Origin: an uncultured Syntrophobacteraceae bacterium
Lineage (GTDB): Bacteria; Desulfobacterota; Binatia; UBA9968
Length of the DNA: 64,000 nt
Direction of reading: 5' to 3'
NCBI GenBank assembly: GCA_964572145.1
Contig: CAZNES010000011.1
Span: 8,687 to 72,686 of the forward strand
The stretch's first letter is position 1, and every line of letters starts with the position of its first letter. The translations under genes were made by a program, and so were the position numbers. Under the pieces are notes generated by a model. The model saw only the letters and a list, made by a program, of their open reading frames with translations, made no database searches and was not told the origin of the DNA. Positions 14,090 to 60,484 of the stretch are shown here, piece by piece.

Positions 14090-15082
14090 GTGGAAAAATT
14101 GCATTTAACGATTGCGTGCGGCGATTACGACCGGACCAAAGCGCTGCAAACGGGAGCGGTCCAACCGGAAGGCATACAGCTCAACTATCTTCCCCTGCAG
14201 GCGGAAGAGATCTTTTGGCGCATGAGCAATTTTAAGGAGTTCGACGCCTCCGAAATGTCGCTCTCGAATCACATCACGATGGTGAGCCGCGGCAACTCTC
14301 CGTTCGTCGCGATTCCGGTGTTTCCATCGCGTTTCTTCAGGCACTCCTGCGTCTTCATCAACACCGATTCCGGCATTAAGGGACCGCAGGATTTCAAAGG
14401 CAAAAAAATCGGCGCGCCGGAATACTCGATCACCGCGGCGGTGTGGATTCGCGGCTTTCTAGGCGACGACTACGGCGTGAAAGCAAGCGACATGCAGTGG
14501 TTCGTCGGCGGACAGGAAGAAACGGGCAGGAAGGAACGAGTGCGCCTGAGCCTTCCGCCCGAGATCAAAGTGAGCCCGATCGCCGACGACAAAACTCTTA
14601 ACGGTATGCTCGAGAGCGGCGAGATCGACGGCCTGATCTCCGCGCGCAGTCCTTCGTCGTTCGTCAAAGGCTCGCCCAAAGTCCGGCGTTTGTTTCCCAA
14701 CTACAAAGAAGTCGAGATGGATTACTACAAGCGCACCAAAATCTTTCCGATCATGCACGTGCTGATCATTCGGAAAGAAATCTACGATCGCAATCCTTGG
14801 GTAGCGCGAAGCCTCTACAAGGCCTTTTGCGAAGCCAAAGATCGCGCGATCCAGGCGATGCACGTGTCTAATACGTTAGCCTGCACCCTGCCATGGCAGT
14901 TTGCGGAGATGGAGCTGCTCAAATCTCTTTTCGGCGCCGACTGGTGGCCCTACGGCGTCGAGCTCAATCAAAATCTCCTGGAGACATTGATACGCTACAT
15001 GGGCGAGCAGGGCCTCATCGACAGGCCGGTCAAGCTGGAAGAACTGTTTGCACCGAGCATCTCCGGCGAGTTTAAAATCTAG
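14090..15082 (+). CDS. 4,5-dihydroxyphthalate decarboxylase (PhtD/Pht5)-family protein
   Basis: 330 aa. The N-terminal LTIACGDYDRTKAL...EIFWRM..FDASEMSLSNHI pattern is characteristic of the PhtD-like PBP-fold decarboxylase family. A paralog lies at 16987-17964. Confidence 0.55.
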   Translation: MEKLHLTIACGDYDRTKALQTGAVQPEGIQLNYLPLQAEEIFWRMSNFKEFDASEMSLSNHITMVSRGNSPFVAIPVFPSRFFRHSCVFINTDSGIKGPQDFKGKKIGAPEYSITAAVWIRGFLGDDYGVKASDMQWFVGGQEETGRKERVRLSLPPEIKVSPIADDKTLNGMLESGEIDGLISARSPSSFVKGSPKVRRLFPNYKEVEMDYYKRTKIFPIMHVLIIRKEIYDRNPWVARSLYKAFCEAKDRAIQAMHVSNTLACTLPWQFAEMELLKSLFGADWWPYGVELNQNLLETLIRYMGEQGLIDRPVKLEELFAPSISGEFKI

Positions 15083-16986: not shown

Positions 16987-17964
16987 TTACGTATCTAAAG
17001 TCGCAGGCGCGAAGAGATCTTCGACAGCCGGCATTTTCTCCATCAGCCCCTGATCCAGAGAGTAGCCCATAAACCGCTCGATATTAGCGCGGTTCTTCCC
17101 AACGCCGTACGGCCACGGGTCGTCGCCCAGCAAATGTCTCTCCTCCTCGAAGAGATGGCGCCCCCAGGCGAGACGCGACCAGTTCGGATCGTCGTAATAG
17201 CGCCGGCAAACTTCCTTGGCCTTCTCGAATGCGTCCATCATACCCCGCGCGAGCCACGGATTTTGTTTGAGCACTTCATCCTTGAACGCCACCACGTGCA
17301 TGATGGGAAAAAATCTGTTCTTGCGAAAATAGTTTAACTCTTCCTGCTTGGCGTTGGAAAAGAGCCGGCGGATCTTCCCCGAGCCTCGCAACACTTCTTT
17401 CGGCGGGTGCGGCATGAACAGCGCGTCGATCTCGCCCGCTTCCAGCAAGCTCCCGATCTTTTTCCCCGCCGGGACGAGCCGAATCTTCACGCCCTCCTGA
17501 GGCTTGAACGGAACCGTCTCTTCCTTGGCGACGACCCACTCGATCTTGCGCCAGTCCACGTCGTATTCGGACTGCAAATCTCCCTTGGCCAGAACGGAAA
17601 GCGTCGTTTGATACGTGCTGAGTCCGACTTTACGGTCGATGAGATCTTTCGGAGAGTCGATGCCGGCCCCGGCGCGCACCCACATTTGCGACATGCTGAA
17701 AAGGCGGCGCGGAAAAACCGGGATAGCGGTAAAAGGCATGCTGCGGCTCTTGGCCATGAGATAGGAGGAAAGGGAAAGCTCGCAGATATCGAACTCCCCT
17801 TTCTGGAGCATTCTTTCATGGCGATCGACGCCGTGTTTTAACGGCTCCGATTGCCCGACCAGCAGCACGTTCAAATCCGCGCCATCGAGTGAAACAGCGC
17901 CGTCGAAAAAAGGAAAATGGCGGTCGTAATGAGACAGCGCCATCTTGAGCTTGAGCTTGGCCAT
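16987..17964 (-). CDS. 4,5-dihydroxyphthalate decarboxylase (PhtD)-family protein, paralog 2
   Basis: 325 aa. LKMALSHYDRHFPFFDG...FDICELSLSSYL parallels the 14090-15082 product. Confidence 0.55.
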   Translation of the reverse strand: MAKLKLKMALSHYDRHFPFFDGAVSLDGADLNVLLVGQSEPLKHGVDRHERMLQKGEFDICELSLSSYLMAKSRSMPFTAIPVFPRRLFSMSQMWVRAGAGIDSPKDLIDRKVGLSTYQTTLSVLAKGDLQSEYDVDWRKIEWVVAKEETVPFKPQEGVKIRLVPAGKKIGSLLEAGEIDALFMPHPPKEVLRGSGKIRRLFSNAKQEELNYFRKNRFFPIMHVVAFKDEVLKQNPWLARGMMDAFEKAKEVCRRYYDDPNWSRLAWGRHLFEEERHLLGDDPWPYGVGKNRANIERFMGYSLDQGLMEKMPAVEDLFAPATLDT

Positions 17965-18506: not shown

Positions 18507-20282
18507 ATGTTCCACTCGCCGCGCAATATTGCTTCAGCTCTCGGAATCGCCGTTTGCTTCTCGTTTACCGTCGTCAACTGGGACGGCGCCAGGCTGACGC
18601 GCGCAGCAGCTCCACCAGTCCCCAAGACAAATATCATCCGCGATATCCCGTATGCCAAAGCCGCCGATTCGAAGAACGCGCGGCGTCAAACCCTCGATTT
18701 GCATCTGCCGGAGACGGCCGTGCGTAAACCGCCGCTGGTTGTCTTTATTCATGGCGGTTTCTGGACCCTCACCGACGACGAATACCAGATCGGTCCCGCT
18801 TTCGCGGACGCGCTGCTGCCGAGCGGCGTCGCCGTCGCGCTCGTCCGCTACCGTCTCGCGCCGGCCGTTACTCATCCCGCGGAAGCCCAGGATATCGCCG
18901 CGGCAGTCGCCTACCTTATCCGGTCGGCCGATAAGTACGGCTACGACGCAAAGCGCATCTACCTCGCCGGTCATTCGGCGGGAGCGCATCTCGCGGCGCT
19001 CGTCGCTCTCGATGGCAGCTACCTGGGCGCGCACCGTCTGAGCCCGCGCTCCCTGGCCGGTGTGCTGGCTTTCAGCGGCATCTACGATCTCCGTCCCAAG
19101 CCGGAAAGCGCGGAGCAACAGAAGCTGGCGGTCCGGCAGGCCTTCGGCGAGACGCCGGAGAAATTTGCATCCTCCTCGCCCGTCACTCATGCGCGGGCGG
19201 ACGCGCCGCCGTTCCTGATTCTCGGGGCGGAAAACGATTTTCCCGGTTTTCTCGTGGATGGAAAGAGATTCGCCGACGCGCTGCGCAATGCCGATCACAA
19301 ACAGGTCATGCAACTTCTCCTTCCCGATCACGACCATTTTTCCCTGGTTCAGTCGATCGGCCAAGACGCCGAAGTCCACAGTCTGCTCCTCGATTTTTTA
19401 AAGGTGGAGCCGCTGCCGCCCGAAATGGCGCTTTTGATCGAGGCCAAGCGCCGGTGGCTCAATCCGCCGCTCTCGACTGTGCCCTTCTGGCGCGAGGAGA
19501 AACTGATTCGTCCTTATCCGGTGGACCGAAAATTAGTGGAAGAAGTGGCTCTTCTATACGGCAGCAACCGGTATGAGCTGCTCGAGTGGCCGCTGGAAAA
19601 CTACTACGCGATCGATCTCTTTTCGTATCTGGATTCCCTGCCGCCGGAAAAGATCGGGCGCGGCAATTATCTCACCGTCACCAACTTCCGCAACGAGAAA
19701 TTGTTTTTGGACCGCCGGCAAATCGAGCCCTACAAGCCCGTCATCGTCGTCGGCCTCGACGACGAAAGAAATCTCTTCCGGCTGGGCGTTTTTTATCAGG
19801 CGAACCGGGAATACAGTTGGAAAGAAGGGCCGAAGCCGCCGATGATGGCGCGACCGGTGGGCGCGTTCATCCACTTCCTCGAATCGCCGCCACCCGAACT
19901 GATAAGACAAGCGCCGTATTACGGCCTCACGGAAAACAGCTTCAAGCTATCCGCAGACGACCCGCTCGGCTCTTTGAAGGCCATGCCGAAAGAAGTTTAC
20001 GAGGCTATGACGGTTCGCAACGGCTGTGTTTACTGCCACAGCTTTCGCGGCATCGGCTCGCAGAGCCACCACGTAACGGAATCCGGCAACAAACCGCACG
20101 GCGGACTTGCCTTGCCCTTGGAGTCCTATCCGGAGAACGTCTGGAAGGACTTCATATTCAATCAAGAGGAGGCGGCGAAGAAGATCGGCGCATCGCCTAA
20201 TATGGTGGACGAAGAAGCGCGGCAAGCATTGTACGATTTTGTGGTCGAGTCGCGGAAGAAGCAGAAAGCGCCTGCGAAATAA
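18507..20282 (+). CDS. secreted alpha/beta-hydrolase (esterase) fused to a C-terminal c-type cytochrome domain
   Basis: N-terminal signal-like segment, then FIHGGFW (oxyanion HGG) and AGHSAGAH (nucleophile elbow GxSxG). The C-terminal ~200 aa contains CVYCH, a CxxCH heme-c attachment motif. Confidence 0.6.
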   Translation: MFHSPRNIASALGIAVCFSFTVVNWDGARLTRAAAPPVPKTNIIRDIPYAKAADSKNARRQTLDLHLPETAVRKPPLVVFIHGGFWTLTDDEYQIGPAFADALLPSGVAVALVRYRLAPAVTHPAEAQDIAAAVAYLIRSADKYGYDAKRIYLAGHSAGAHLAALVALDGSYLGAHRLSPRSLAGVLAFSGIYDLRPKPESAEQQKLAVRQAFGETPEKFASSSPVTHARADAPPFLILGAENDFPGFLVDGKRFADALRNADHKQVMQLLLPDHDHFSLVQSIGQDAEVHSLLLDFLKVEPLPPEMALLIEAKRRWLNPPLSTVPFWREEKLIRPYPVDRKLVEEVALLYGSNRYELLEWPLENYYAIDLFSYLDSLPPEKIGRGNYLTVTNFRNEKLFLDRRQIEPYKPVIVVGLDDERNLFRLGVFYQANREYSWKEGPKPPMMARPVGAFIHFLESPPPELIRQAPYYGLTENSFKLSADDPLGSLKAMPKEVYEAMTVRNGCVYCHSFRGIGSQSHHVTESGNKPHGGLALPLESYPENVWKDFIFNQEEAAKKIGASPNMVDEEARQALYDFVVESRKKQKAPAK

Positions 20283-20309: not shown

Positions 20310-20384
<75 letters not shown>

Positions 20385-21062: not shown

Positions 21063-21093
21063 TCCTTTCTCGCTAAGCAATAAATAAAAAAAG

Positions 21094-21128
21094 GAGCGAT
21101 GGGTCGGATCGCTCCCTTTTTTTATTTC
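21094..21128 (+). terminator. rho-independent terminator
   Basis: Hairpin GGAGCGATGGGTCGGATCGCTCC followed by a T-run. It sits immediately after the RRM gene. Confidence 0.75.
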
Positions 21129-42335: not shown

Positions 42336-42411
42336 CTAACCGTAGCTCAGTTGGGAGTGCGCTAGAATCACGCTCTAGAGGTCGGGGGTTCGACTCCTCT
42401 CGGCTCCACCA
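42336..42411 (+). other. tRNA-like chimera / pseudo-tRNA (Val-CAC-type anticodon arm, tRNA-Ala-type 3' end, non-pairing acceptor 5' strand)
   Basis: The D arm GTAGCTCAGTTGGGAG, the anticodon arm CTAGA-ATCACGC-TCTAG (CAC) and the T arm plus 3' end GGGGGTTCGACTCCTCTCGGCTCCACCA differ by only one nucleotide from the tRNA-Ala 3' end at 40973-41004. The 5' seven nucleotides CTAACCG cannot pair with CGGCTCC. Confidence 0.45.
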
Positions 42412-42621: not shown

Positions 42622-45327
42622 ATGGCGACGCTGAACTGGCATTCTATGGGTGTCGATACCGTCTTGACGGAACTACACACAGATCCTCAACGAGGTTTAG
42701 CAGAGGATGAGGTGAGAAGGCGCATTGAGGAATATGGCTATAATGAGCTTAAAAAAGAAGAGAAGGTCTCTCCCTGGATCCTGTTCTTCAAACAGTTCAA
42801 GAACATCCTCATCGTCATCCTGCTGATTGCAACGGTCCTATCGGCCCTCCTCGGGGAGATGGTGGATGCCACCATCATCATGGCCATCGTCATCTTCTGC
42901 GCGGTCCTGGGCTTCGTCCAGGAGTACCGGGCGGAGCAGGCCCTGGAGGCCCTGAAGAAAATGCTCACGCCTACCATCACAGCGATCAGGGGAGGGAAGG
43001 AACACGAGATCCCCTCGAAGGAGTTAGTTCCAGGAGACATCATGCTCCTTGAGGCGGGAGATAAAATCCCCGCTGATGGCCGGTCCGTCGAAGTCCACTC
43101 CCTGAAATGCGATGAGGCTCCCCTGACAGGAGAATCCTTTCCGGTGGAGAAGGAGACCAAGCTACTGCCTGAGCATATAGCCGTGGGAGACAGAAAAAAC
43201 ATGGTCTTCACAGGCACCACCGTCACCTACGGGAGAGCAAAGGTAGTGGTCACAACCACGGGCATGAATACAGAGTTTGGCAAGATCGCCGAAGAGGTGG
43301 CGTCAGTCGCCAAAGAAGAGACGCCCCTTGAAAAGAGGACAGCAGAGATCGGTAAATGGCTAGGGATCATCTGCCTGGCCGTATGCTTTTTGGCTGCGGG
43401 CATCAGCATTATCAAGGAGCTGATGGTGGGAAAGCTTGATCTCCAGTTCACGATCACAATGGTGACGTTCGGTATCGCTCTTGCGGTGGCGGCGGTTCCT
43501 GAGGCGCTGGCCGCCATCGTGACCGGCGCGCTGGCGATCGGCATGCATGAAATGGCCAAGAGAAACGCGCTGGTGAGAAAGATGCCGGCGGTGGAGACGC
43601 TGGGATGCACGACGGTGATCTGCTCGGATAAAACAGGGACCCTTACGAAAGGGGAGATGACGGTGCGGAAGTTCTTTAGCGGGGAAAGGATGATTGAGGT
43701 GACCGGCGCTGGTTACACCCCCGAAGGTGGTTTTAGCGCAGCGATCAATGATCCATCCGCCCAGTGGCTTCTGAAGGCGGGGCTCCTGTGCAGCGATGCC
43801 GTGCTTGAAGAAAAAGAGGACCGCTGGTCCGTCAAAGGAGATCCTACTGAGGGCGCACTCGTGGTGCTCGCCGTCAAGTCAGGGTTGCATCAGGAGGAGA
43901 CCCGGCTTGAGTGCCCGAGGATCGAGGAGTTTCCGTTCAGCTCTGAGAGAAAGCGGATGACGACGATCCATACGATGGGAGATGGGAAGAGAGTGGCGTT
44001 TGTGAAAGGGGCTCCAGAAGTGCTCCTGGAGAGATGCTCCTCTCTCCTGGATGGAGGAGAACTGAGAGCGTTAACCAATGGCGAAGGGGAAAGAATTCTG
44101 AACGTCAATGAGGAGATGGCCAAGGACGCCTTAAGGGTTCTGGGCATCGCCTATAAAGAACTCCCAGAGATGGATGGGTATGGCGAGGAGTCCGTTGAAA
44201 GAGACCTGGTCTTCCTCGGCCTGGTCGGAATGATGGATCCTCCCAGGGAGGAGGCCACAGAGGCAGTAAAGGTGTGTCGCCAGGTGCATATCAAACCCGT
44301 CATGATCACAGGGGATCACAGGCTGACTGCCGTGGCCATCGCAAAAGAGATTGGTATCTACCGTGATGGAGATCTCGTTCTCACGGGCGAGGAACTTGAC
44401 AAGATGAGCGAGGAGGAGTTCGAACGGATTGTTGAAAGAGTGACCGTCTATGCCAGGGTCTCGCCCATGGACAAGCTGAAGATCATCAAGGCATGGAAGA
44501 AAAAGGGCGAGGTAGTCGCCATGACCGGCGACGGAGTCAACGACGCCCCGGCCCTCAAGCACGCCGACATTGGGATCGCCATGGGGATCACAGGAACCGA
44601 GGTGGCCAAGGAGGCTGCGGATGTAGTCCTGATGGACGATAACTTTGCCACTATTATCCAGGCTATTGAGCGGGGAAGGTGGATCTATGACAACATTAAA
44701 AAGTACCTCACCTATCTACTGAGAGCGAACATCACGGAGGTGGTGGTCCTCGGCGGAGTCGTCATGATCACGGACCCCGAGTTCTTGCCTCTCCTGCCGG
44801 CGGCGATCCTCTACATCAATTTGGCCACGGACGGGCCTCCGGCGCTGGCGCTGGGTGTGGCGCCTCCCGACCCTGACATTATGCAGAGACCCCCGCGAGA
44901 CCCGAAAGAGAGCGTGTTTTCATGGGACGTCAGAGCCCTCGTCCTGCTGGGGGTGGTCATCGAGTGCCCCATCTTCTTGTGGGTCTTCTTCCAGAACTTT
45001 GCCAATCTAGAGCTGGCAAGAACGAAGGTCTTCTTCATGTACGTGCTCATCGAGTTGATCCTCGCCCTCAATTTCCGCTCGTTGAAGTACAGCATCTTCC
45101 AGGCGCCCCCCCACAAATCGCTCGTTCTGTCGATTGTCGGCACCTTGGTATTCACCGCTGCCTTGATCCAGATTTCCTCCGTGCGCGAGGCATTTGGAAT
45201 CGCCCTGCCAGCTGCCTCGGACCTTGGTATAATTTTGGCTCTGGGCCTATTCGTCACGATCACGATCGAAATTACCAAAGCTGTTTTGAGGGCCAAGGCA
45301 CCTGGGGTGGGAGGGGTCTCCGCCTAA
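42622..45327 (+). CDS. cation-transporting P-type ATPase (type IIA-like, Ca2+/Mg2+)
   Basis: 901 aa. DKTGTLT phosphorylation motif, TGDGVNDAPAL hinge motif, and a 10-TM architecture. Its codon usage has lower GC3 than the neighbouring genes. Confidence 0.9.
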   Translation: MATLNWHSMGVDTVLTELHTDPQRGLAEDEVRRRIEEYGYNELKKEEKVSPWILFFKQFKNILIVILLIATVLSALLGEMVDATIIMAIVIFCAVLGFVQEYRAEQALEALKKMLTPTITAIRGGKEHEIPSKELVPGDIMLLEAGDKIPADGRSVEVHSLKCDEAPLTGESFPVEKETKLLPEHIAVGDRKNMVFTGTTVTYGRAKVVVTTTGMNTEFGKIAEEVASVAKEETPLEKRTAEIGKWLGIICLAVCFLAAGISIIKELMVGKLDLQFTITMVTFGIALAVAAVPEALAAIVTGALAIGMHEMAKRNALVRKMPAVETLGCTTVICSDKTGTLTKGEMTVRKFFSGERMIEVTGAGYTPEGGFSAAINDPSAQWLLKAGLLCSDAVLEEKEDRWSVKGDPTEGALVVLAVKSGLHQEETRLECPRIEEFPFSSERKRMTTIHTMGDGKRVAFVKGAPEVLLERCSSLLDGGELRALTNGEGERILNVNEEMAKDALRVLGIAYKELPEMDGYGEESVERDLVFLGLVGMMDPPREEATEAVKVCRQVHIKPVMITGDHRLTAVAIAKEIGIYRDGDLVLTGEELDKMSEEEFERIVERVTVYARVSPMDKLKIIKAWKKKGEVVAMTGDGVNDAPALKHADIGIAMGITGTEVAKEAADVVLMDDNFATIIQAIERGRWIYDNIKKYLTYLLRANITEVVVLGGVVMITDPEFLPLLPAAILYINLATDGPPALALGVAPPDPDIMQRPPRDPKESVFSWDVRALVLLGVVIECPIFLWVFFQNFANLELARTKVFFMYVLIELILALNFRSLKYSIFQAPPHKSLVLSIVGTLVFTAALIQISSVREAFGIALPAASDLGIILALGLFVTITIEITKAVLRAKAPGVGGVSA

Positions 45328-58861: not shown

Positions 58862-59183
58862 GCCTACTAGTGTAGTGTCTCACGCCGTTGACACCTTATC
58901 CTAAGTTCGACAGGCGAAGTGGAGTCTGCCACCACGAAGGACACGAAGAGCACGAAGGAAGATAAAATCATGCTTGGCGGCCTTTGCGCCTTTGCGCGAA
59001 ACAATCCGAGACGAACCGGTGCGCCAAGCGCACCCTACGAAAACCTTCGTGTCCTTCGTGCCTTCGTGGTGAATCCTACTTTTCTCATTTTGGTTGCGGC
59101 TTTGCCACGCTGTGCGCTTCGTGGTGAATAGAGAAAGCTTGAAGGATAAGTGCTTTAATTTAAGAGGCGCTACACTAGAGTCT
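58862..59183. repeat. MITE-like element with terminal inverted repeats (ACTAGTGTAG / CTACACTAGAG) and internal long inverted arms of CACGAAG repeats
   Basis: Outer TIRs at ~58866-58876 and ~59170-59181. Inner arms ACCACGAAGGACACGAAGAGCACGAAGG (58931-58959) and CCTTCGTGTCCTTCGTGCCTTCGTGGTG (59052-59079). A CTTTGCGCCTTTGCGCG block resembles the copy C block at 63180-63215. Confidence 0.55.
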
Positions 59184-59921
59184 TTTATACAGCCACTGCG
59201 GCGTGAAACGGATGGCGTAGGTGTTTAGGAAGGTCATATAGTCAGTAACAAGGAGAATCCCCACAACAACCAACAGGAAACCAGCGCCCATATGGACGGC
59301 GTGAATGTAGCGGCGAAAGCTTGTGAAAAAAAGAAAAAACGAATTTAACGCCACCGCGCTGAGAAAAAACGGAACGGCCAGCCCCGCAGCGTAAGTGGTG
59401 AGCAGCAACATTCCCATGTTGATCTCTGCTGAGGTCCCGGCCAAAGTCAGAATCGATCCCAAGATCGGGCCGACGCACGGAGTCCACGCCACGGCAAAGG
59501 TGAGGCCGATCAGCACCGATCCGAGATAGCCGACGGGCTTGTCCCTCAGATGGTTCAACTGAAACTGCAGGTAGCGGCCCAACAGCGGAATTTTCAAAAC
59601 CCCCAGGAGATAGGCCCCCACAAAAATGATGAGAATCCCGCCGACGATGCGGATGATCTTACGGTATCCCAAAAACAGGCTTCCCAAAAAGCTCGCCGAA
59701 GCACCGAAGGAGATAAAGATCAATGAGAAGCCGAAGATAAACGCAAGCGAGTTTGAAATCACGCGCCAGCGCACTTGGCTTGTGACTTGAGCGGCGCGCA
59801 TCTCTTCCAAGGAAACGCCCGAGATGAACGAGAGATAGGAAGGAACAAGCGGCAGCACGCAAGGAGAGAGAAAGGAAAGCACCCCGGAAGTAAAAGCGAC
59901 TATAAAGTTGATTTCGCTCAT
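59175..59921 (-). CDS. ccdA: cytochrome c-type biogenesis protein CcdA (DsbD transmembrane-domain family)
   Basis: 248 aa. The two conserved Cys segments LSPCVLPLVP and WTPCVGPILG. Confidence 0.9.
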   Translation of the reverse strand: MSEINFIVAFTSGVLSFLSPCVLPLVPSYLSFISGVSLEEMRAAQVTSQVRWRVISNSLAFIFGFSLIFISFGASASFLGSLFLGYRKIIRIVGGILIIFVGAYLLGVLKIPLLGRYLQFQLNHLRDKPVGYLGSVLIGLTFAVAWTPCVGPILGSILTLAGTSAEINMGMLLLTTYAAGLAVPFFLSAVALNSFFLFFTSFRRYIHAVHMGAGFLLVVVGILLVTDYMTFLNTYAIRFTPQWLYKRL

Positions 59922-60484
59922 CGCTTGCCGTCGAGCAGATCCTGAATGAGCTGCTTGGCGCCCGCGCTATCCCACTGAGCCGGTCCCCACATTCTCGCTA
60001 GGCCCTCGCCCTTGGGGCCGATCAGATAAGTCGCGGGCAACCCCCAAGCTCCATAAAGAAGACCCACTTCGCCGTCCGGATCGAGCATGACCGGATAGGT
60101 GATTTTGAGTTCCTTTAGGAAGGCGACTGCGTCCTTAGGGTTGTCTTTCACGTCCACGGCGAGAATCGTGAATCCCTTGCTTTTATACTGCTGGTAGAGC
60201 CGCTCCATCGCGGGCATCTCTTCCCGGCAGGGAAGGCACCAAGTGGCCCAAAAATTGAGCAGGACCAATTTGCCGCGAAAATCTTTCAGCGCGCCTTTTT
60301 TTCCGGACAGATCGGCAAGGGTAAAATCGGGAGTCGGCGAACTGTCCTTCGTCGGCTCCAGATTGGGAACGACCTTGTAGTTCAGCCCGGGAGCGCGACC
60401 GCTCTGGCCCCAACTCTCTCCGTTTCCAAGCCAAAGAGCCAAAAGCAGAAGAAAAAACAATCCTATGAACCGCTGGCTAATCAT
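59918..60484 (-). CDS. TlpA/ResA-like periplasmic thiol:disulfide oxidoreductase
   Basis: Signal peptide, the thioredoxin-fold WCLPC active site (FWATWCLPCREEMP). ATGA overlap with ccdA. Confidence 0.85.
   Translation of the reverse strand: MISQRFIGLFFLLLLALWLGNGESWGQSGRAPGLNYKVVPNLEPTKDSSPTPDFTLADLSGKKGALKDFRGKLVLLNFWATWCLPCREEMPAMERLYQQYKSKGFTILAVDVKDNPKDAVAFLKELKITYPVMLDPDGEVGLLYGAWGLPATYLIGPKGEGLARMWGPAQWDSAGAKQLIQDLLDGKR

Follow-up and report, generated by a model that had tools for sequence, protein, structure and literature searches.

An exported Binatia protein that joins a predicted esterase to a Cys-free SUOX/PruR-like domain and a cytochrome c-like domain

In a 64,000-nucleotide stretch of DNA from an uncultured Syntrophobacteraceae bacterium (GTDB lineage Binatia; contig CAZNES010000011.1), hereafter called the window, we analyzed a gene whose 591-amino-acid product begins as an esterase and ends with a c-type heme-attachment motif. 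We read this product, with a probability of roughly 0.6, as an extracytoplasmic three-domain hemoprotein composed of an esterase, a Cys-free domain with a fold like that of the sulfite oxidase (SUOX) family and of PruR, and a class I cytochrome c (Table 1). The order of these three domains is very likely correct. Its most likely role is that of a hydrolase in the periplasm, coupled to a redox module with heme c. The permanent attachment of a c-type cytochrome to a serine hydrolase, an enzyme with no need of electrons, is puzzling in functional terms. Public assemblies hold an identical 591-amino-acid protein with the same start (P0001).

An AlphaFold2 model based on 105 homologs had a mean predicted local distance difference test (pLDDT) score of 90.4 and a predicted template modeling (pTM) score of 0.86 for the whole protein. 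Together with pLDDT values above 90 over the domain boundaries, this pTM indicates that the modeled protein folds as one compact multi-domain body. The initial annotation of this DNA had divided the protein into an esterase of about 300 residues and an unrelated C-terminal region of about 250 residues with CVYCH. The conserved motif does lie in a cytochrome-c-like domain, but the 290 residues after the esterase form two domains, and the cytochrome occupies only the last 100 residues or so.

The CVYCH motif is the sole CxxCH among the 188 open reading frames (ORFs) of at least 90 amino acids in the window. The protein itself contains only three cysteines, two in this motif and the third in the N-terminal signal or anchor segment. 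Among family members with a heme-domain match spanning the motif, CxxCH was present in 236/239, down to approximately 30% identity, and the three exceptions were one CVYCN variant and two poor fragments. It was also found in 118 of 120 representatives at 50% identity and in 119 of 120 close homologs, and C507, C510, and H511 were invariant in 66 diverse members (alignment A2). Because the motif is unique in the window, lies in a Cys-poor protein, and is conserved across the family, it is not a chance occurrence. Judged from this conservation, heme is probably bound covalently at C507 and C510. The initial annotation had left room for an unconserved CxxCH and a C-terminal domain lacking a cytochrome fold; the 236 conserved motifs and the cytochrome-c-like domain point the other way. 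The CVYCN variant, P0105 (L004:6001-7746), is an otherwise normal full-length homolog in which Asn replaces the proximal His. The change may reflect natural variation of the heme ligand, or else an error in sequencing a metagenome-assembled genome (MAG).

A profile of the cytochrome-domain family, compared with PDB sequences, retrieved almost only class I cytochromes (c555, c551, c552), and these matches aligned across the N-terminal helix and the CxxCH. SorU, the cytochrome partner of sulfite dehydrogenase, was among the best structural cytochrome matches. We regard residues ~486-591 as a divergent class I cytochrome c with one heme. Compared with known class I cytochromes (c551/c552/c555; MtoD, 4xxl), the domain has Ala at the position of the Met ligand and an extra beta-hairpin (residues ~521-534) that bears the conserved H522. 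Furthermore, this domain is never free-standing, and the middle domain always precedes it.

For the heme ligands, His and Met candidates had been put forward from the sequence. H522 proved near-invariant: it was kept in 70/72 aligned sequences (Ser in P0140, Gln in P0158) and was invariant in alignment A4. In contrast, M566 was not conserved, and neither was H521, which lies beside H522. When the domain was aligned with c551 of P. aeruginosa, the c551 loop 'IPMPPNAV' lay opposite 'IGASPNMV', and Met61 fell on the near-invariant A562. The c551 sequence used here is presumably correct; over residues 1-40 it matches the alignment from the PDB profile search. With M566 variable and Ala at the position of Met61, we rejected His/Met ligation. 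The Ala at the Met position and the near-invariant H522 lead us to infer either His511/His522 ligation or an openable distal site. Ligation by two histidines, with H511 proximal and H522 distal, is an evenly balanced proposition on the conservation pattern. MtoD provides a precedent for bis-His ligation in a class I cytochrome fold.

A separate model of residues 301-591, covering the middle and cytochrome domains, had a pLDDT of 88.9 and a pTM of 0.87. In the Foldseek search with the middle domain, PruR was top-ranked (7rkb, probability 0.97, E 0.055) and was the best single match, with SoxC, SorA, sulfite oxidase, and YedY also among the closest folds. Identity in the structural alignments with PruR was 10-14%. 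Residues 301-485 contain no Cys in the window protein and in almost all relatives. The domain therefore lacks the molybdenum-ligating Cys, which is universal in the SUOX family (PMC11194511). The periplasmic PruR is likewise a Cys-less SUOX fold, in which free pterin is held between a Tyr and a Trp with a hydrogen bond from an Asn (N102, Y104, and W160, plus a PW motif), and it signals through DcpA in a pathway controlled by cyclic di-GMP (c-di-GMP) (PMC11194511). The middle domain matches PruR (7rkb, 7kp2, 7kos, 7kom) in its SUOX-type fold without the Mo-ligating Cys and in its predicted periplasmic location. However, PruR is a stand-alone protein of ~150 amino acids encoded upstream of dcpA, whereas the domain described here spans ~185 amino acids inside a 591-amino-acid protein. 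Sequence similarity between the two was undetectable, and no DcpA-like neighbor was found over 33 lineages. The near-invariant residues of the middle domain (N393, D418, E420, Y436, and W438) suggest that it has a binding or active site and is more than a spacer, and the domain may contain a ligand-binding cleft. Among them, N393, Y436, and W438 may be counterparts of the Asn, Tyr, and Trp that clamp the pterin in PruR.

For the N-terminal domain, the assignment as an esterase of about 300 residues was borne out by Pfam, Foldseek, and the catalytic triad. The best Pfam match was BD-FAE (PF20434; E 2.4e-34, 119.2 bits against a cutoff of 26.8, residues 63-244), followed by Abhydrolase_3 (PF07859; E 2.8e-20, 73.4 bits against a cutoff of 25) and weaker hydrolase families. 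NCBIfam returned matches to hormone-sensitive-lipase (HSL) families, far under their equivalog cutoffs. Foldseek matches in the PDB included the feruloyl esterase 4zrs, EstB, Aes, and an alpha/beta-fold kynurenine formamidase (E 1e-16 to 1e-14, TM score ~0.7 normalised on the target). In the 105 homologs used for conservation, which were 53-100% identical to the window protein, H82-G84, the GHSAG residues, D244, and H277 were all invariant or nearly so, and GHSxG was also kept by nearly all metagenome relatives of 40-85% identity. The acid was assigned to D244 by position and conservation, without geometry, as it follows a beta-strand at the place typical of HSL-family esterases. By its conserved residues, the domain is an intact serine esterase with the triad Ser157-Asp244-His277, and it is predicted to be active.

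Compared with known HSL/BD-FAE carboxylesterases (4zrs from a soil metagenome, L. rhamnosus EstB, E. coli Aes, and 4e15), the N-terminal ~260 residues share the fold, the HGG motif, the GxSxG elbow, and the Ser-Asp-His triad. The known members, in contrast, are one-domain proteins of ~300 amino acids, mostly cytoplasmic or simply secreted, and carry no SUOX-like and cytochrome c tail. Substrate specificity cannot be carried over from them to the window protein, which is just 20-27% identical to them and scores below every equivalog cutoff of NCBIfam. The source labels 'arylformamidase' and 'acetyl esterase' are automatic annotations.

The signal-like N-terminus noted earlier was also recovered: the model contains a 21-residue hydrophobic helix (residues 5-25) followed by a disordered linker (residues 24-37). 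A hydrophobic N-terminal segment was present in 156/186 full-length family members, many with clear AxA cleavage sites, and classical cleavable Sec signals were found in relatives. By these features the protein is extracytoplasmic, predicted to be Sec-exported or membrane-anchored at its N-terminus. Two other routes were considered and rejected. For export by twin-arginine translocation (Tat), the SPRRI of some close relatives is Tat-like, but neither the window protein (SPRNI) nor P0007 (APRHI) has it. A twin-Arg pair occurred in only 51 of the 186 full-length members (27%), whereas E. coli MsrP has the canonical Tat motif KRRQVLK. A lipoprotein was rejected as a general feature, with 'IAVC' in the window protein being an imperfect lipobox and Cys17 being unconserved. 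Molybdenum cofactor (Moco) enzymes require Tat export in the folded state, and c-type heme is attached after Sec export. Thus, the predicted Sec export suits c-type heme attachment and speaks against a molybdenum cofactor.

As first noted from the sequence, the window contains a ccdA-type gene, but it lies ~39 kb from the esterase-cytochrome gene and is unlinked to it. It overlaps by 4 bp with a gene for a thioredoxin-like protein. Together they make up the arm of cytochrome c maturation that reduces the apocytochrome, and the pair may have a part in maturing the esterase-cytochrome protein. No heme-handling WWD-motif protein was found in the 64-kb window. In the region window:58134-60484 (-), which includes the ccdA pair, folE lies approximately 480 bp further downstream on the same strand and encodes GTP cyclohydrolase I, the first step of pterin synthesis. 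The pterin link between folE and the PruR-like domain is probably a coincidence.

To determine the extent of the family, an exhaustive HMMER search with residues 301-591 was run against 1.84 billion representatives. The tail, i.e., the middle and cytochrome domains together, fell at 50% identity into at least 186 clusters, most of them from Binatia, and a word-indexed search returned over 120 full-length homologs that were 53-100% identical. Nearly all named homologs carry the label 'Candidatus Binatia' or the older MAG label 'Deltaproteobacteria bacterium'; among the members labeled as something other than Binatia are one MAG of Terriglobales and one of Hyphomicrobiales (L007). The earlier view of a non-standard fusion holds in that we found no such architecture, and no description of the tail module, in the searchable literature, but the fusion belongs to a sizeable family and is not a one-off. 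In the sources, these proteins are named 'alpha/beta hydrolase', 'arylformamidase', 'acetyl esterase/lipase', or 'hypothetical protein', and about half of each protein is unannotated.

Across the family, the tail was the constant part. Of 66 distant full-length members, just 24 retained a match to an esterase Pfam family. In most of the distant members, Gly, Ala, or Asp stood in place of S157, and both H277 and HGG were lost. These members nevertheless kept C507, C510, H511, H522, Y541, D418, E420, Y436, and W438. A subgroup of 450-510 amino acids had a shorter, unassignable N-domain after a classical Sec signal peptide, and some proteins of ~300 amino acids consisted of the tail module alone behind a signal peptide, lipobox, or anchor. 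Because the tail is constant and also occurs alone while the esterase residues are dispensable, the tail appears to be an ancient conserved module and the functional core of the family. The window clade would then be a large branch that pairs this module with an intact esterase. In seven members of the short-N subgroup (P0181, P0185, P0186, P0194, P0195, P0203, and P0207), the N-domain of ~190 amino acids has a conserved Cys pair near its start, spaced 6-8 residues (e.g., 'LDCANQDPSCV'), which suggests a periplasmic disulfide.

Combining hydrolysis with redox chemistry gives a mechanism that we propose only tentatively. The esterase would de-esterify or de-formylate a periplasmic substrate, and in the window clade it would supply or process the ligand of the middle domain. 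The middle domain would bind a small molecule with redox activity, which could be the product that the esterase releases or, as in PruR, a ligand of the pterin type, and would not bind a molybdenum cofactor. Soluble carriers of the respiratory chain in the periplasm would exchange electrons with the middle-domain site through the c-heme. More doubtful still is the broader proposal that the tail is an unrecognised class of periplasmic oxidoreductase or redox-ligand module, with a non-molybdenum organic ligand, such as a pterin, or the heme as its catalytic center, and that its fusion to the esterase in the Binatia clade yields a bifunctional enzyme, one that carries out hydrolysis followed by an oxidation or reduction.

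Several observations weigh against the three-domain hemoprotein or parts of it. The match to Pfam Cytochrom_C (PF00034) reached 18.4 bits with the whole protein and 20.9 bits with the isolated domain, below the cutoff of 21.3. Thus, of the domain families named in the initial annotation, Abhydrolase_3 passed its cutoff but Cytochrom_C did not. Among 25 diverse members searched at E<=1, 11 matched Cytochrom_C and 3 matched Cytochrome_CBB3, none above the gathering cutoff. Such below-cutoff scores explain why annotations are silent on heme. For the middle domain, no Foldseek match reached E<=0.001, and no Pfam family was matched in 21 family members (E<=1, PF00174 included). The window protein did not match Oxidored_molyb (PF00174) even at E<=10. 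A PDB sequence search, with the single sequence and with the family profile, gave nothing at E<=10 for this domain, though PruR entries were present. HHalign against an MsrP profile gave a probability below 1%, the profile being shallow, with homologs all at least 90% identical. The proposed link to SUOX and PruR is therefore one of modeled fold similarity alone. A conserved operon partner was sought and none was found, no neighbor family occurring in more than 5 of the 33 lineages. The distant esterase-like domains appear mostly catalytically dead, so ester hydrolysis would not be intrinsic to the function of the module, and a coupling of hydrolysis and redox chemistry in the window clade is a conjecture.

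One competing explanation takes hydrolysis as the sole chemistry of a redox-tagged or redox-regulated esterase, in which the middle domain serves as a structural spacer or substrate-binding lid and the heme tunes activity or stability in line with the redox state of the periplasm. The redox-regulated esterase suggested earlier is in essence this explanation. The intact and strongly conserved triad of the window clade fits this explanation, as does the lack of a conserved redox partner gene, and c-hemes with His/His ligation are often low-potential switches. We consider it unlikely, however, since the tail is better conserved than the esterase and occurs without an esterase or with domains that lack the Ser and His. 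A tail that occurs without a working esterase has its own function, and N393, D418, E420, Y436, and W438 resemble a binding or active site, not a spacer. The heme itself could be doubted if CxxCH formed a disulfide or metal site in an all-helical, superficially cytochrome-like domain. This is highly improbable: c-heme attachment is recognized by an invariant His directly behind the second Cys, and this His accompanied both Cys residues in all but three members. Moreover, the motif stands at the end of an N-terminal helix, where class I cytochromes also have it, and the PDB search with the family profile brought up hardly anything other than cytochromes c. The family is also extracytoplasmic, and maturation genes are not expected within one 64-kb window.

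Two further explanations assign the middle domain a role already known for its fold. In one, the protein is a non-catalytic binding or sensing protein of the PruR type, which binds an excreted pterin or a similar metabolite, uses the heme to report redox state, and signals to a membrane partner by direct protein contact. PruR was the best structural match and acts in this manner with DcpA (PMC11194511). One distant member, P0172 (L085:1-7452), lies beside bcsA, bcsB, and a GH8 gene, which belong to a c-di-GMP-controlled process like that of PruR and DcpA. On the other hand, no DcpA-type or other conserved partner was found beside the window gene or its relatives, the complete and strongly conserved triad of the window clade is hard to reconcile with a pure sensor, and there is no detectable sequence relatedness to PruR. 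A sensor had also been among the earlier suggestions, and it found no support in an output domain or a conserved partner gene. We consider a role of this type quite improbable. The other explanation is a true molybdenum or tungsten enzyme, a single-chain analog of SorAB or SoxCD, in which the middle domain binds Mo-molybdopterin with a non-Cys ligand such as D418 or E420 and passes electrons to the c-heme. The closest folds (SoxC, SorA, sulfite oxidase, YedY) and the match to SorU are in its favor. In addition, two very divergent members, P0203 and P0196, which are 29% identical to each other, adjoin molybdate transporter genes. The stop of P0203 overlaps the start of modA, indicating translational coupling, and modB-modC follow (L087:7001-10917). 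For P0196, modB-modC lie 4.5 kb upstream, beyond an insertion with a transposase and ParDE (L172:1-7482). The mod genes of both loci, all three in L087, scored above NCBIfam equivalog cutoffs. Nevertheless, the middle domain has no Cys and PF00174 was unmatched in the 21 members, twin-arginine signals are not conserved, mod genes are absent from the window and from 93 other family loci, and no Moco riboswitch was found. A molybdenum or tungsten enzyme is thus very unlikely. Given the SUOX-like fold, the modABC adjacency is a lead, and it says nothing about the window protein. In a stranger variant, conceivable because of this adjacency in two very distant members, the SUOX-like domain would handle molybdate, tungstate, or a Moco-like cofactor without the canonical Cys.

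Under the favored reading of a hydrolase joined to a heme-c module, close known systems include SorAB, SorT-SorU, and SoxCD, in which a periplasmic SUOX-fold domain is likewise paired with a small c-type cytochrome of class I. In these systems, the Mo subunit is Tat-exported and has a Cys-ligated Moco and a dimerisation domain, and the cytochrome is a separate polypeptide. In contrast, the protein described here is a single chain with Sec-type export that lacks the Cys, the PF00174 signal, and the dimerisation domain, and has an added esterase. Quinohemoprotein alcohol dehydrogenases (1kb0) also fuse a C-terminal cytochrome c domain to a catalytic domain. However, their catalysis is that of a pyrroloquinoline quinone (PQQ) beta-propeller oxidoreductase, whereas a hydrolase needs no electron outlet.

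The fold types are all known, but the combination and the module of ~290 amino acids are not in Pfam or NCBIfam. With no Pfam model over at least 186 clusters, this module represents a new domain family. It would widen the recent insight, gained with PruR, that periplasmic branches of the SUOX fold exist that lack the Cys and use no molybdenum, and would tie such a branch to heme for the first time. Binatia are abundant uncultured bacteria of soil and sediment, and the spread of the family among them probably marks a real periplasmic activity. If true, the bifunctional reading would describe the first serine hydrolase hard-wired to a respiratory electron-transfer chain. The architecture is real, conserved, and puzzling, and it would amount to a new biological principle only if its redox chemistry proves new.

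Table 1. Features of the esterase-cytochrome gene and of related or adjacent genes in the window
Feature	Residues	Position in window	Strand	Basis or remark
Whole gene, exported three-domain protein	591 amino acids	18507..20282, stop codon included	+	ORF list
Predicted N-terminal signal peptide or signal-anchor, MFHSPRNIASALGIAVCFSFTVVNW	1-25	18507..18581	+	Hydrophobic, modeled helix
Alpha/beta-hydrolase esterase domain, HSL/BD-FAE type	~41-300	18627..19406	+	Pfam, Foldseek
HGGFW oxyanion-hole motif	82-86	18750..18764	+	H82, G83, G84 invariant or near-invariant in 105 homologs
GHSAG nucleophile elbow, S157 predicted nucleophile	155-159	18969..18983	+	Conserved in window clade
Predicted catalytic acid	D244	19236..19238	+	Near-invariant in clade
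Predicted catalytic histidine	H277	19335..19337	+	Invariant in 105 homologs
Middle domain, Cys-free, SUOX/PruR-like predicted fold	~301-485	19407..19961	+	
Mono-heme cytochrome-c-like domain, C-terminal	~486-591	19962..20279	+	
CVYCH covalent heme-attachment motif (C507, C510, H511)	507-511	20025..20039	+	
Candidate distal (sixth) heme ligand	H522	20070..20072	+	
tRNA-Gly(CCC)		20310-20384	-	Starts 27 nt past the stop of the esterase-cytochrome gene
ccdA-type thiol-reductant transporter		59175..59921	-	DsbD_TM E 1.7e-14
Thioredoxin-like AhpC/TSA-Redoxin gene		59918-60484	-	AhpC-TSA 1.2e-29, Redoxin 3.1e-23

The esterase-cytochrome gene looks monocistronic, and the base composition near it is unremarkable. 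Its neighbors are functionally unrelated: a glyoxalase-family gene and an NMT1-like gene lie divergently upstream, and genes for an RRM RNA-binding protein and an amidohydrolase lie downstream. Genomic contexts were examined at six loci of close and distant homologs and at seven more of distant members, and a census of neighbors was taken at 82 loci from the 33 lineages. A contig scan for module loci, in which two of the three search patterns lay in the esterase domain, returned three module-bearing loci. Synteny was limited to close relatives and was gone at 55-60% identity. Since there is no conserved operon partner, the genomic context gives no substrate. The recurrent neighbors were NMT1-like binding proteins, a metallophosphoesterase, and housekeeping genes, with NMT1-like genes being the commonest neighbor of the family gene at related loci.

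The metallophosphoesterase adjoins the family gene in 5 lineages, very distant ones included (e.g., L004:7883-8848, L087:5990-6877, and L114:2262-3371). Its orientation varies between convergent and divergent, so co-transcription with the family gene is unlikely. At the P0172 locus, the family gene lies directly downstream of a co-oriented gene for a GH8 (BcsZ-like) glucanase, and both are divergent from the cellulose synthase pair bcsA-bcsB.

A few other features of the window were recorded. In the region window:20709-21122, the small RRM-type RNA-binding protein has a long Gly-rich, Arg-containing tail, GGGGGGGGGGGGGGNRRGGGGGGRDRW, and a strong bidirectional terminator-like hairpin (21086-21122) follows. 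The region window:12300-17964 encodes a BPD_transp_1 permease that is unusually long (583 amino acids, ~10 transmembrane segments), followed by two paralogous genes for NMT1/THI5-like binding proteins (14090-15082, +; 16987-17964, -). Finally, Rfam gave a weak tRNA-like match at 42340-42403 (+), truncated to model positions 5-66 and scoring 34.4 bits. This match, which may be a tRNA remnant, lies a short way upstream of the gene for a P-type cation ATPase (42622-45327).

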